Of a stretch of 64,000 nucleotides of DNA, positions 1 through 30,388 are shown piece by piece. The stretch spans positions 195,863 through 259,862 of IMG/VR virus record IMGVR_UViG_3300037484_000445. The stretch is one strand, 5' to 3'. Each line of letters starts with the position of its first letter. Position 1 is the first letter of the stretch. The translations under genes were made by a program, and so were the position numbers. The notes beneath the pieces are model-generated. The model did no database searches and was not told the origin of the DNA. It saw only the letters and a program-made list of their open reading frames with translations. The DNA is from a virus (taxonomy: Duplodnaviria; Heunggongvirae; Uroviricota; Caudoviricetes).

Positions 1-1
1 C

Positions 2-1252
2 CCTCAGGCAGATCCCTCGAACCACACAGTGATCAAGCACGAGGACGAAGGCGGGGCGGCAGAAGAAGAGCCTGAGGGTAAGGAAAAGAAGCCCAAGGAG
101 AAACCGTCGGCGGGCAATAGGGCCAAAGCCTTTTTCAAAGGGCTCTCCGACAAGGCAAAAGCTTTCGTGACTAGCTCTTCGGCTGAAGTACAGAAGTTCG
201 TTTCTGATTCAGAACATCGAAAGCAAACGATGGTGAATGCGGCAAAGGCCGTTAAGGATTCTCCCAAGGTTTACGCTAAGAGAATCGTGGAGACGGTTAG
301 GCACGAGGTTCACGAATTCAAAGAGGCTGGCGAAGGTATAGGGGTGGTCATCAAGGGTGGGAAGATGTCCCCCAAGCAGAAGAAGGCTGTTACAACAGTG
401 GCAATCCACATGGGGATTGCGGTTACAGCCGCTGCTTTGACATCTACGGGCGTGCTTGCTGGGGCTGCGGCCCTGGGCAAGGGTATGGCTCAAAAGATTG
501 CCCTGAAGGCTGCTGCACGCGCTCTAGAGAACATTCATCTGGCACAGGAGATCTCGCACATTGGACACGGGGCTCATGCCTTGGCCCACATCTTCACGGC
601 CGCCGAGGGGGAAAAGCCCGAGAAGGTCAGTCCCGAAGAAGTGCTAGCTATCCTTGTCCTGCAGAGTGTCCTCAAGGAACTCGAGGATTTCAGCGATGAG
701 GATATGGCGTCTGTTCTGGAGGAGGCTTCAGGGCAGGCCACGGAGAAGACAGCCTACGTATTGGCGAAGGTGGACCAACTGGAACCGGCCCTGGAGTCAA
801 TGATGGACATTCTAGGGCAGATCCCGGTGAGGGATTTTGATAGAATCCTAGTGGCCGCCCGAGCTGAATCTGCAACCCTTGATGGTCGGGTCTGGCAGAA
901 GCGTTTTGTTCCTCATTTGGAGAATGTTTACGATAAGATACGTGAGCTAGATGATCCCAAGGAGATCCTCAAGGACATTGAGGCTGGGTACAAAGCTCAA
1001 ACGCTGATTGAGCTCATTTGGCAGGCGTTGACGGCGGTTACGGTTCCCCGCAAAGCTTCTCCCGACTATGCCATCTCGAACATCGAATTCAATCCTGATC
1101 CGACGACGCGTCGTGAAGAAATATCGTACAGTATACAAGTACTTAGAGAGTGGAACCAGGAACTCGAGAAGTGGGTAAAGGACGCCAGGACCACTTTAAA
1201 GGCTCTAGTTCCCAAGGTTCGGCGGGTGATCAAGATTAAGTCCTTGGTGTAA
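2..1252 (+). CDS. 5'-partial hypothetical protein, possibly virion-internal
   Basis: Frame is open to the window edge (no stop upstream of GTG 29); helical K/A/E-rich protein. Confidence 0.6.
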   Translation, partial: PQADPSNHTVIKHEDEGGAAEEEPEGKEKKPKEKPSAGNRAKAFFKGLSDKAKAFVTSSSAEVQKFVSDSEHRKQTMVNAAKAVKDSPKVYAKRIVETVRHEVHEFKEAGEGIGVVIKGGKMSPKQKKAVTTVAIHMGIAVTAAALTSTGVLAGAAALGKGMAQKIALKAAARALENIHLAQEISHIGHGAHALAHIFTAAEGEKPEKVSPEEVLAILVLQSVLKELEDFSDEDMASVLEEASGQATEKTAYVLAKVDQLEPALESMMDILGQIPVRDFDRILVAARAESATLDGRVWQKRFVPHLENVYDKIRELDDPKEILKDIEAGYKAQTLIELIWQALTAVTVPRKASPDYAISNIEFNPDPTTRREEISYSIQVLREWNQELEKWVKDARTTLKALVPKVRRVIKIKSLV

Positions 1253-8002: not shown

Positions 8003-8824
8003 ATGGACCCTTTTGCTCACCGCGTAGCTGCTAGGTTCAAGTCCAAAAAGAGGCTTGAGTCTGGCAATACCGTTTACGTCTACAGCCCTAGACAGGTAGC
8101 CCTTCGTAATTCGGAGAAAGCTGGCCGTCTGGAGAAGCTTAGGGGTAGCATCAAAAGCCTCCGAAGCCAGGTTCGCAAGGACTTGGCTTCGGACGACCCA
8201 GATACGGCCCTTACGGCGCTCGCTGTAGCCCTCATAGACCATACTTACGAACGAGTAGGCAACGACGGGTCGGCGGAAGAAAGAGGCCACTACGGTGTCA
8301 CTGGTTGGCAACGGGACCATATCAGCTTCGGTAAGGGCAAAGCCACCATCCAGTACGTCGGTAAGTCTGGCGTCAAGCAGAAGAAGACCATCACGGATGG
8401 TCGCATCTTGGCCGCCTTGAAGGATGCTTATGAGGGCTGCGACGGCGATTCGATCTTTTCCCATGGGGTTGGAAAAGTCGATGCCAGCAAAGTGAACTCG
8501 TACCTCAAGAAGTTCAACGTGACAGCGAAAGACTTGAGGGGTTTTCACGCAAATCGTGAGATGCAAAGCGCTCTCAGGGCCGTTCGATCCAAAGGTGGTG
8601 CCCTTCCAGAGGATCACGATGAACGAGAGGCTCAGCTCAAGAAGGAATTCGAAAAAGCCCTCGAGATCACGGCTGAGGCCGTGGGTCACGAAGCGGCTAC
8701 TTTGAAAAACCAGTACCTCGTCCCAGGGCTAGAGGCCACCTTCCTCAAGGATGGAAAAGTCCTTGGGAGAATGAAGGCTGCTGTCGCCGAGCGTTTCAGA
8801 GAGTACCTCAATGGACACTCGTAA
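8003..8824 (+). CDS. type IB DNA topoisomerase, catalytic core only, with N-terminal RVAARF tag
   Basis: Catalytic pentad context: YERVGN, YVGKSG, TAKDLRGF, VGHE, NQYL. Confidence 0.85.
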   Translation: MDPFAHRVAARFKSKKRLESGNTVYVYSPRQVALRNSEKAGRLEKLRGSIKSLRSQVRKDLASDDPDTALTALAVALIDHTYERVGNDGSAEERGHYGVTGWQRDHISFGKGKATIQYVGKSGVKQKKTITDGRILAALKDAYEGCDGDSIFSHGVGKVDASKVNSYLKKFNVTAKDLRGFHANREMQSALRAVRSKGGALPEDHDEREAQLKKEFEKALEITAEAVGHEAATLKNQYLVPGLEATFLKDGKVLGRMKAAVAERFREYLNGHS

Positions 8825-10274
8825 AGTAGTTCAACGCTACAAGCTATCGAGCACTTTGACCAGGAATTGGCTCTCAAGAGTCAAGAAAGGGTGGAAGGCC
8901 GTCCTCGCTTCACCCCATGAACCTAAGGACAAATTCACTATCCTTCAGGAGTTCCTCAAGAACTTGCGAGAACAGGTCCTTTATCAAAAGCACGGCCTGG
9001 ACATCATCTTCGAAGGATCTGCTGGCAGACAGCGCTTTGAGACTCTACTGGCTAAAACACAGGCAAAGCTCAGTCAGCTTTCCGATGAGTATGTGCTGGC
9101 TAGCACTGAGTTTCACCTGGCATCTAGTGTTCGGGACGATTTCGTAATCAAGATCGAGAAGGAAACTGGCGATAATGTTCGTAGGTTAGGGGACGAACGT
9201 TTCACCCTCAAGTACCCAACCTACAAGCCTTTTCGGGATGAGTGGCTCAAAACCATGGAAGCCCTAGATCAGTGGCGGTGGTACCCAGAGAAAATGTTTG
9301 GGTCCCTCACTCGGATCTTTGATGAGCTGATGAAGCATCTTTATGCTGACGCCAAAGCCCGAGCCGACTACGAAAGTGCGGGTGGTCAGATCGACGATAG
9401 ACACCTGACTATTGAGAAGGTGTTCGACTTGAGTGGCCTCAAAGTTGTTATGATCGACGATAATATCGACCAGATCGATGTTCGAGGGTACGTCAAGCAT
9501 CTCAACAGAGCACAACAGTTACTGGCAAACAAGGGTTTTGGTAAGCTGTGGTATGGTGTGATTTTCGTCGAGAAAAAGGCTCATCAGAAGACCCCCGAAG
9601 AGATCGAGCTCGGCAAACAATGGGGCTATGACAATACGGCCAATGCGGGTGAGTATAGTCACACATCAGACAAGGTCTATGTGCAACAGCCGGCAAACGG
9701 CGGGGTTACGGGGACTGTCATTCATGAACTCGGACACCGTTATTGGTTCAAGTTCATGAAGCCTGCCCAAAGAGCGCGTTTCAACTCTCTGGTCCAAACC
9801 AAGAAGACAGACAAATCCCGCGACTTCCCACAGGGTCCGACCACTGATGAAGGCGGCCTAAAGCCAGTCACACCCTTTGGTGCCTATGCGGGATCCAATA
9901 TTGAAGAAGCTTTTGCCGAGGTCTTCGAAGGCTACGTGACTGAGGGTGATCTTGACCGAGATCAACTTGAGTCCTTTCGATCTGTTCTAGCCACTTCAGC
10001 CCAAATAGTAGCTCGAAGGTTCGAGCAAGCTTCAAGGAGCAAGAAAATCACTCTGGGCTACCAGGCCGTCGATATTCGGACAGGCAAACCATTGTCCGAT
10101 ATTTTCTCCAAGAGAGAGCCTGCTCGTGCGGCGGTGAAGATCCTTTTGAGTCAAGGGCTCAATGCTGGAGTCCAAACCGTAGAAGCCTATGTACCGAGTG
10201 ACTGGAAGCGTGGTGACTCTTTGGAGTCCTATGTCGACCCGGAAACCTTGGAAGCCTTGAAGCACAAGAAATGA
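8811..10274 (+). CDS. zincin metallopeptidase (HEXXH...E) multidomain protein
   Basis: VIHELGHRY and EEAFAEVF; RKVVQRY at the N-terminus and IVARRF before a small C-terminal domain. Confidence 0.75.
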   Translation: MDTRKVVQRYKLSSTLTRNWLSRVKKGWKAVLASPHEPKDKFTILQEFLKNLREQVLYQKHGLDIIFEGSAGRQRFETLLAKTQAKLSQLSDEYVLASTEFHLASSVRDDFVIKIEKETGDNVRRLGDERFTLKYPTYKPFRDEWLKTMEALDQWRWYPEKMFGSLTRIFDELMKHLYADAKARADYESAGGQIDDRHLTIEKVFDLSGLKVVMIDDNIDQIDVRGYVKHLNRAQQLLANKGFGKLWYGVIFVEKKAHQKTPEEIELGKQWGYDNTANAGEYSHTSDKVYVQQPANGGVTGTVIHELGHRYWFKFMKPAQRARFNSLVQTKKTDKSRDFPQGPTTDEGGLKPVTPFGAYAGSNIEEAFAEVFEGYVTEGDLDRDQLESFRSVLATSAQIVARRFEQASRSKKITLGYQAVDIRTGKPLSDIFSKREPARAAVKILLSQGLNAGVQTVEAYVPSDWKRGDSLESYVDPETLEALKHKK

Positions 10275-10630
10275 AGTCGGCCGTCGACCTAGATGAACGC
10301 TGGGCAAGACGGTTTGACGCTACCCAGCGTCGCTTAGAGCTCAAGGAACGGGCTGTGGCCTACAAGGGAGGTAGCTGTTGTCTCTGCGGCTATGACCGGT
10401 GTCTACAGGCCTTGGAGTTTCATCACTTGGACCCGGGTTCAAAGGACTTCGAGATTTCGTCCAAGATGCGTTGGGATCAGGTAAAGCTGGAGCTAGACAA
10501 GACCATCCTGGTTTGCTCAAATCACCATCGTGAGGTGCATGCTGGGCTTTACCCGTCCCTACTAGGCGGGTGCATCGAAGAGGGCTCTAGCGGCGTCTAC
10601 AACGAGCTGGAAGACCCTCCGGAGGAGTAA
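10271..10630 (+). CDS. HNH endonuclease
   Basis: CCLCGY...LEFHHLDP...LVCSNHHREVH. Confidence 0.85.
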   Translation: MKSAVDLDERWARRFDATQRRLELKERAVAYKGGSCCLCGYDRCLQALEFHHLDPGSKDFEISSKMRWDQVKLELDKTILVCSNHHREVHAGLYPSLLGGCIEEGSSGVYNELEDPPEE

Positions 10631-18585: not shown

Positions 18586-18861
18586 TCACCCCTTCCCACT
18601 CGGTCTACCCTTCTTGATCTCAAGGGATCGTCGCTTTGGCTTCTTGACCAAATCCTCAAAGGTGGTTCCAAGCACGTTGGCGATCTCGGCCAACTTACCA
18701 AGGGTCAGATTCTGCTTACCGCGCTCCACGAGCCCAACGTACTGAACTGAGCACCTCAGCCTCTCGGCAAACTCGGCCTGTGTCAGGCCTTTGGTTCTAC
18801 GTAGTTCAGCTATGCGACGGGCCACTCTGCTGATCAGCGCCTGGGGGTCGGTGGGGCTCAC
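18586..18861 (-). CDS. XRE-family HTH regulator
   Basis: RIAELRRTKGLTQAEFAERL...VERGKQNLTL. Confidence 0.85.
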   Translation of the reverse strand: MSPTDPQALISRVARRIAELRRTKGLTQAEFAERLRCSVQYVGLVERGKQNLTLGKLAEIANVLGTTFEDLVKKPKRRSLEIKKGRPSGKG

Positions 18862-18945
18862 GCTCGGAGCCCACGTCGGAAGCGCCCTCAGTAAAAGCAA
18901 GTTATAGCTTTGACATTGCGTTGGTATTCAGATCACGATCCGTTC

Positions 18946-20199: not shown

Positions 20200-20208
20200 T
20201 CTTCAAGA
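20200..20208 (+). repeat. right target-site duplication TCTTCAAGA
   Basis: Identical to 13503-13511. Confidence 0.9.
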
Positions 20209-20231
20209 TCCATTTATGCTAACCCTTGGGC

Positions 20232-20654
20232 ATGACCTCTCAGGCCCAGCGACTAGCCAGCAGATACACCAACGAAGCGGGGGGCCACCTGGTCGTTCTC
20301 ACGGAAGAACGCTTTAAGGCTCTAGGTGCTTCAGCCAAACTGTGGGAGGGGTACACCTACAAATTGGCCTACGACCAATTCTCTGAGCAAGGAGAGGCCG
20401 CTGGAGGGGGTCAGATAGACTTAGGCACTCCGAAGTTCGCCAGTCTGGAAGGGCTCTTGAAGTCTCGAAGCATTGAAGGGCGTGTGTGGTTGGATTGGTC
20501 CAACAAGAAACACACGCCCCGCTCTTGCATCAGTAGTGAGGCTGAAGAACGCACAGGCTTCAATCGGACTTATAGCCTGTGGATCGAACGAATTGATGGG
20601 AGGCCCTTGAATTCGGAAGAGCTCCGTTTCATCAACGCCGAACTTCACATCTAA
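20232..20654 (+). CDS. hypothetical protein with N-terminal RLASRY tag
   Basis: MTSQAQRLASRY. Confidence 0.7.
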   Translation: MTSQAQRLASRYTNEAGGHLVVLTEERFKALGASAKLWEGYTYKLAYDQFSEQGEAAGGGQIDLGTPKFASLEGLLKSRSIEGRVWLDWSNKKHTPRSCISSEAEERTGFNRTYSLWIERIDGRPLNSEELRFINAELHI

Positions 20655-29461: not shown

Positions 29462-30388
29462 ATGGATCCTCTCGTTGCCAAAGTTGCGGCCCGGTATCGA
29501 GCAGCCCGTGTGGCTCACCGCTTCATCGTGGCTGGACTCGCCGATCAGTTTGAGACGAAGATCCGAGACCTTTTGGACGGCCCCCTTGATAGCCAAAAGG
29601 GTAAAGCTCTAGCAGCTTGGATGTCCGACAACTTCCATTTCAAGGGAAGTAAGACACCTAAGGGTGGAAAGGACCTGAAGAATATTCTCAGTATGCTTCA
29701 CTGGGCCCTCGACGTGGGGCTTGGTCAGGGGGGTAACCCTGAAGCGCTACGGCCCACGATTGAGAGTGATTGGTCCAAGATCCAACCAAAACTCAACGAT
29801 CTGGTCAAGTTGTTCACCGAAGAGGGTGGGAAAGTCGTACCCAAAGAGATCAAGGTCGGTGCCAACACGTACCGCAATCTCTCAGGTTTTCCTGAAAAAC
29901 AACTCGATGACTACATCAAAGCCCTCGAGGCTGTGTTCGATGAGCTCAAGGGGTGGCGTAAGAAGGCGCTTGCTGGTAGTCTTGAAGTAGCCCTAGCCGG
30001 TCCAGGAGAGTTCAGGGGCACTTCCTCAGGCAAGTACAAGTCGAGTGAGGACGTCCTTTATGTTCGGGCAACGCCGAAGATTTTGAAGCGTTCTCGGGGA
30101 ACATACGCAGCCTTCGACTACATAATCGTGCATGAGCTTGGCCACCGTTATGAGTACAAGAGGCGGCCAAGCATAGACTTCGAACGTCAAGAGTGGTTCA
30201 CCAGTCCCTATAGTCAAAAAGAGGGTGAAGCCTTCGCAGAGCTCTTTGCTATCTCGAACTTTGGAATCAAAGGTCCGTGGAAGCAAGAGACTGTGGATCG
30301 CTTTGAGGACTTCATGACTACGGGCAAAGTGACGGAGCACGAATCTGTAGAGCTCCCACCACACCTTAAGGCGCTTGTTGGTCGCTAG
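29462..30388 (+). CDS. zincin metallopeptidase with tandem N-terminal KVAARY/RVAHRF tags
   Basis: VHELGHRY and EAFAELF. Confidence 0.75.
   Translation: MDPLVAKVAARYRAARVAHRFIVAGLADQFETKIRDLLDGPLDSQKGKALAAWMSDNFHFKGSKTPKGGKDLKNILSMLHWALDVGLGQGGNPEALRPTIESDWSKIQPKLNDLVKLFTEEGGKVVPKEIKVGANTYRNLSGFPEKQLDDYIKALEAVFDELKGWRKKALAGSLEVALAGPGEFRGTSSGKYKSSEDVLYVRATPKILKRSRGTYAAFDYIIVHELGHRYEYKRRPSIDFERQEWFTSPYSQKEGEAFAELFAISNFGIKGPWKQETVDRFEDFMTTGKVTEHESVELPPHLKALVGR

Follow-up and report, generated by a model that had tools for sequence, protein, structure and literature searches.

Results

Tagged genes in the window

The stretch of DNA analyzed here, 64,000 nucleotides long and referred to as the window, lies inside a single virus contig of 451,925 bases from an uncultured myovirus, whose best DNA matches come from freshwater sediment and wetland metagenomes. 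Gene calls and gene numbers (g63, g74, etc.) were obtained using a simple in-house caller, and several starts were corrected by hand. The features considered are as follows, where Ala at +8 is an alanine three residues past the six-residue tag.

1..1252, + strand: 3' part of a tagged protein of 450 residues
7976..7989, + strand: promoter-like motif of the late class, 27 nt upstream of the start of Topo IB; the class also precedes several head and tail operons
8003..8824, + strand: Topo IB, a minimal type IB topoisomerase of 273 residues (Pfam PF01028, E 1e-25; PDB 2f4q, E 7e-11)
8021..8038, + strand: tag RVAARF, Topo IB residues 7-12, with no Ala at +8
8780..8797, + strand: AVAERF, a degenerate C-terminal tag-like copy, Topo IB residues 260-265; weak, 6.5 bits against the four-genome profile
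8811..10274, + strand: zincin-like metallopeptidase of 487 residues with variable N- and C-terminal domains; HELGH at 9723-9737, later EEAFAE
8823..8840, + strand: tag KVVQRY at the N-terminus of this peptidase, residues 5-10
10005..10031, + strand: internal tag IVARRF with Ala at +8, from residue 399 of the same peptidase; 14.3 bits
20206..20219, + strand: late-class promoter-like motif before the gene at 20232
20232..20654, + strand: protein with the N-terminal tag RLASRY (20250-20267); its orthologue is also tagged
29462..30388, + strand: second zincin-like peptidase, 308 residues, with two tandem N-terminal tags
29480-29506 and 29507-29533, + strand: the tandem tags KVAARY and RVAHRF, each with Ala at +8

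An earlier note on this DNA had proposed that unrelated enzymes share the tag [RK]-[VL]-[AV]-x-R-[FY]. All the peptides that it quoted (RVAARF, AVAERF, KVVQRY, IVARRF, KVAARY, RVAHRF, and RLASRY) are present at the genes concerned, and most of them fit the motif, but AVAERF and IVARRF do not match its [RK] start. The 450-residue protein at the left edge, whose start and tag (RVVARY followed by KGA) lie just before the window, had been missed.

The type IB topoisomerase core (R, K, R, H/N, Y) is complete in Topo IB: the catalytic positions of D. radiodurans TopIB correspond in the alignment to R84, K121, R179, H229, and Y238. Topo IB and the peptidase at 8811-10274 each have a gene of their own in this phage; the two genes overlap and lie far from the head module, and contigs from four other runs show no frameshift in either gene where they cover it. 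A strong tag is found in 16 of 20 distinct Topo IB orthologues, which retain the helix and almost never have the Ala. The C-terminal Topo IB tag described in the earlier note is present as AVAERF, although the copy is weak; some orthologues have a clearer tag at the matching boundary. A three-base insertion (GCT) at position 8776, just before AVAERF, occurs in two strains (X6 and X7).

Both peptidases have HELGH and a downstream E-A-F-A-E, that is, the HEXXH and Glu expected of zincins, and the peptidase at 8811-10274 resembles PF07737-like clusters with a score of 0.95-0.96 (ESM Atlas features). Its closest orthologue starts with RVAARF followed by IQA, and the internal IVARRF begins just past residue 395, where the homology with orthologues ends. 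The other domains of these peptidases vary among relatives, and the tags stay at the borders. Their substrates may, at a guess, be defense or envelope proteins of the bacterial host.

An HNH-like gene follows the first peptidase (10271-10630), and the strain of run X2 has 735 other bases in place of 164 bases of this gene. The right target duplication of a transposon overlaps with the promoter-like motif (20205-20219) that precedes the 20232 gene. A phage clpX gene lies just before the window (G000 C1:194506-195735; L011:14506-15735); in genomes G001 and G002, a long insert that is probably an intein interrupts clpX.

Occurrence, consensus, and placement of the tag

The pattern of the earlier note gave 15 matches in the called genes, compared to 1.6 in shuffled sequences (at most 6 among 200 shuffles), and 9 of the matches were N-terminal compared to 0.1 expected over the called genes of the whole genome, so that the proposed enrichment at termini exceeds chance. 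A profile search of the phage genome gave 20-25 tagged proteins, most of which are encoded outside the structural module. Over four complete genomes there are approximately 89 tagged proteins in approximately 53 families, where tags were masked before family grouping and a few chance hits are included; these counts are not independent because orthologues were counted. In the same kind of search, the frequency in Tunturi_5 and phage G was at the chance level, and the head proteins of the mycobacteriophage Catera have no such tag (best 4.8 bits). A literature search found no publication describing the tag.

The 81 strong copies comprise 60 N-terminal, 3 C-terminal, and 18 internal ones, and the placement at termini and domain boundaries of unrelated proteins that had been suggested is upheld. 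Most orthologues below the threshold have a degenerate tag at the same place, which indicates that a family, once tagged, keeps its tag.

The consensus of the 58 N-terminal copies from the four complete genomes has hydrophobic residues at -3 and -2, the core [RKN]-[VL]-[AV]-x-R-[YF], and often Ala at +8; positions 0, 1, 2, 4, and 5 were fixed by the search pattern, whereas -3, -2, and +8 were free. Ala at +8 occurs in 26 of these 58 copies, against a background of approximately 8%, and in 11 of the 21 tags located elsewhere, while the remaining 32 N-terminal tags, that of Topo IB included, lack it. Only one proline is found among the 81 tags, and their hydrophobic moment is greatest at 90 degrees, a value close to the helical period. 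Judging from these properties, the tag is an amphipathic helix. It is longer than the six residues of the earlier note, and it is not confined to enzymes, since core head proteins are tagged too. An XRE-type helix-turn-helix protein (18586-18900, - strand) scores 14.3 because its first helix mimics the tag; it was treated as a false positive, and such first helices form a false-positive class for motif scans.

The two basic positions of the helix, often followed by Lys-rich segments, and the fact that Topo IB works on DNA would suit a DNA-binding helix with no protein receptor, by which the proteins act on the genome or enter together with it. This is improbable in view of the strong hydrophobic face and the fixed Arg-aromatic pair, and the tag is also present on peptidases and acidic core proteins.

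Association with head genes

The head module of the phage, at approximately 64-85 kb, contains the terminase (g67), portal (g73), g74, a protease (g77), a scaffold-like protein (g78), and the capsid protein (g80). The capsid protein is 82% identical to that of LR745208 (uncultured), 49% to that of Tunturi_5, 39% to that of Bacillus phage G, and 27% to those of cluster C mycobacteriophages; judged by this protein, phage G (Donellivirus) and Tunturi_5 are the nearest cultured relatives.

The head-module proteins g63 and g65 are tagged, as are orthologues of g74, a protein of 1093 residues after the portal. In the latter the tag lies near residue 70, and a second copy precedes a conserved inner domain; the tag copies in the phage's own g74 are degenerate. 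Of 32 related loci, a set that includes some near-duplicates, 27 have Topo IB no more than 10 kb away from head genes. The topoisomerase gene lies mostly between terminase and portal, the commonest arrangement being directly after the terminase and fused to a small protein, g68; in other related loci it is fused to g74. In L040, L046, and L049, Topo IB is one module of a polyprotein of 1000-1600 residues, and tags are found at the module borders of those in L040 and L046. Relatives thus have polypeptides that combine different enzyme domains and are encoded near virion genes; in the window, Topo IB and the zincin have a gene each. No MuF match was found in the subset of tagged proteins that was scanned with Pfam.

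Upstream motifs of the tagged genes

The earlier note had also stated that the tagged genes lack a GGTGTA element. This was confirmed, as the element precedes none of 16 tagged genes and 110 of 605 untagged genes of the phage (p=0.04), and none of 29 tagged and 180 of 1029 untagged genes pooled over three genomes (p=0.004), the difference being not significant in any relative taken singly. Instead, a motif close to TAATC-N-TTTATG is found at -25 to -29 in 19 of 29 tagged genes (corrected p 5e-6), and an upstream profile trained on two relatives ranks the tagged genes of the phage higher (p 3e-4). A strong site is present before 6 of 45 structural genes that are untagged and before 7 of 361 others (p 0.001). 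The profile is soft, in that structural genes and the remaining genes are not separated by their medians (p about 0.1), and an initial search trained on structural genes only was noisy. The motif shared by tagged and structural genes can be read as a late promoter. In a separate observation, the short word Y-x-Y-D-R-R stands at the end of a ferritin-like protein and at the beginning of an unrelated one (G000 C1:103720-104382 and 406316), and both genes are preceded by the late-class motif.

The promoter, start, and tag have a fixed spacing, and 60 of the 81 strong tags are N-terminal, as would be expected if the tag were a passenger, namely, a late promoter and initial codons that recombination has joined to new genes, the peptide itself having no function. 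However, the tags are encoded with all six Arg codons and varied Val and Leu codons, which indicates selection on the peptide and not a DNA repeat. Residues are conserved while codons and neighbors vary, 21 strong tags are internal or C-terminal, and tandem tags exist; the passenger explanation is largely refuted and has very little probability left.

The promoter classes also bear on a reading in which a ClpX-type unfoldase or another cellular machine recognizes the tag for unfolding, turnover, or localization. Tagged genes lie on both sides of the phage clpX in three genomes, and no clpP motif was found. Nevertheless, clpX lies behind a GGTGTA element and belongs to the other promoter class, LR745208 has many tags and no clpX, and the internal tags at module borders fit poorly, so that we give this reading little credence.

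The prohead protease and its predicted cut site

The g77 protease of the head module (G000 C1:79699-81228) matches phrog_18299 with E 8e-10, and its H125 and S176 are invariant. PDB sequence searches with g77 gave no match. The alignment-based model of its core has a pLDDT of 78, compared to 34 for the single-sequence fold. This model aligns with T4 gp21 (5jbl; Z 8.7, rmsd 3.2, 125 residues aligned) and with VZV assemblin (Z 8.2, rmsd 4.6, 113 aligned), where the Z scores are barely above the tool's noise level of 7-8, and Foldseek gives an E of only 0.02 against gp21. With modest confidence, the model points to a protease of the T4 gp21/assemblin fold.

In this phage, phage G, Tunturi_5, and Catera, the tripeptide [KR]-x-A exceeds expectation 1.8-2.5-fold in head-core proteins; the ratio for the remaining proteins is about 1.15 in the three phages other than Catera. 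Of 113 homologues, 112 have the tripeptide in the linker that follows the protease core. In scaffold g78 it is repeated between low-complexity blocks and without a tag-like helix. These distributions suggest that [KR]-x-A is the cut site of the protease. Many tags end with [KR]-x-A (RY-KTA, RY-KGA, RF-KEA) or with [YF]-L-x-A; upstream R/K-x-A accompanies only 7 of the 21 tags that are not N-terminal.

Herpes assemblins cut after Ala, at release sites such as YLQA. The tag might accordingly be only an extended prohead-protease site (P9-P1, with a [YF]-x-x-A end like that of herpes assemblin release sites) that serves trimming or activation without loading, and the Ala at +8 in 26 of 58 N-terminal and 11 of 21 other tags, together with the assemblin-like fold modeled for g77, would fit this. 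It is, however, unlikely, considering that the Topo IB orthologues keep the helix and almost never have the Ala, that some tags end proteins and leave little to cut off, and that the [KR]-x-A repeats of the scaffold lack the helix. Support for removal of the tag, the maturation role of the earlier note, is only partial, as Ala at +8 is present in under half of the N-terminal tags and absent from that of Topo IB. The Topo IB tag without an Ala ending suggests that docking and cutting are separable, as in the capsid-targeting sequence (CTS) of T4 (PMC9026906).

Residues 385-509 of g77 form a conserved helical C-terminal domain, which is absent from Tunturi_5 and phage G, both of which lack the tag. 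This domain is a candidate reader of the tag. A complex prediction with the tag, the capsid protein, and this domain gave a score of 0.00, which is neither support nor counter-evidence. An orthologue of the protease at L063:8432-11269 contains an intein-like insert of approximately 430 residues. In Catera, the head proteins gp87, gp88, gp93, and gp94 (L242), of the cluster C mycobacteriophage type, contain many RTA/KTA tripeptides; protease and scaffold form a single fusion, in which inserted domains lie between RTA/KTA-type sites.

Proposed function and comparison with known systems

Most likely, as far as sequences can tell, the tag loads unrelated proteins into virus heads, so that they are delivered to the next host. 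The enrichment of the tag, the synteny and fusions with the head module, the shared promoter class, the placement at domain boundaries, and the gp21-like protease argue for the modular, protein-level address label of the earlier note, tied to head assembly. The tag is probably a docking helix of 10-12 residues with which a protein joins the assembling prohead core in the manner of the T4 CTS. In this process, the tagged genes would be transcribed late together with the structural genes, and the helix would bind a core, scaffold, or shell protein. The gp21/assemblin-fold protease would then cleave core proteins after the Ala of [KR]-x-A and many tags after their closing Ala, which would release cargo and split polyproteins, while some cargo, e.g., Topo IB, would keep its tag. 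The cargo would be ejected with the DNA and be active early in infection.

To our knowledge, short loading signals of phage heads are barely known outside T4. The T4 CTS of the internal proteins IPI-III is, like the tag, an N-terminal peptide of approximately 10 residues on unrelated small proteins; its targeting residues lie upstream and its processing residues at the end, so that docking and cutting are likewise separable (PMC9026906). A shared short terminal peptide on unrelated proteins and a protease in the head module, of the gp21 fold according to the model, are found in both systems, and the cargo varies among relatives in both. The tag is nevertheless unrelated in sequence, Arg-rich, and ends with Ala, whereas T4 gp21 cuts after Glu (PMC9026906); at +8 the consensus of the 58 N-terminal copies is Ala followed by Lys, and Glu is not enriched there. 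Unlike the CTS, the tag is also internal, C-terminal, and tandem, and it occurs on approximately 20 proteins per genome, many of them enzymes.

The polyproteins of L040, L046, and L049 resemble the polyvalent proteins of Iyer et al. (2017, PMC5512222), zincins and other enzymes strung near virion genes and predicted to be packaged. The portion of that paper considered here describes MuF or portal fusions and processing by zincins, and no short shared tag appears in it; unlike polyvalent proteins, the tagged cargo genes here are mostly stand-alone and dispersed. In the jumbo phages SPN3US and phiKZ, the prohead protease matures internal proteins by cutting at a three-residue motif that recurs in their propeptides, which is similar to the present scheme; the cut there is at AxE, the propeptides are mostly 111-254 residues long, and no shared helix is reported (PMC10052503), compared to the predicted site [KR]-x-A here. 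Phage G and Tunturi_5 have the same protease family and [KR]-x-A excess and lack the RVAxR tag. By analogy, the working principle of the tag would be that known from the T4 CTS and polyvalent proteins, with a different sequence.

If this is correct, hundreds of uncultured huge phages have a day-zero arsenal that can be listed by means of the tag. The tagged proteins, which are mostly of no known family, would then be good candidates for anti-defense or host-takeover activities, and the tag would provide a portable loading signal for very large capsids.

Other tags in related huge phages

In LR745208 (L057 and others), a two-helix leader of 26 residues ending with LLKEA is found on approximately 11 proteins, and it also matches the C-terminus of orthologues of g74, the gene at G000 C1:75243-78524. 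One cargo domain is preceded by the RVAxR tag in the present phage, by a degenerate tag in G002, and by the two-helix tag in LR745208. Phage G (NC_023719; L056, L144-L161), which lacks both the RVAxR tag and the two-helix leader, has an N-terminal R-[LI]-[KI]-[KR], often followed by [KA]-[SA], on approximately 20 unrelated proteins including small head-module proteins (22 copies compared to 3.2 expected). No analogous N-terminal tag was found in Tunturi_5.

By analogy, the three tags may do one job. It is conceivable, though we hold it only tentatively, that the huge phages related to phage G share a general cargo-loading code, in which lineage-specific, interchangeable helices copied from a core protein of the g74 family, a late promoter, and an Ala-specific cut site turn any acquired enzyme into an injected effector. 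The injected arsenal could then be read from sequence alone, and the analogous tag of phage G makes the idea testable in a cultured phage.

At least 10 ADP-ribosyltransferases have been described in phage G, and it has been argued that myoviruses inject them (PMC9503650). All four phage G proteins with an N-terminal H-x-T-S, a motif that we read as being of the ADP-ribosyltransferase type, are tagged, one of them with a K-L-K-K variant.
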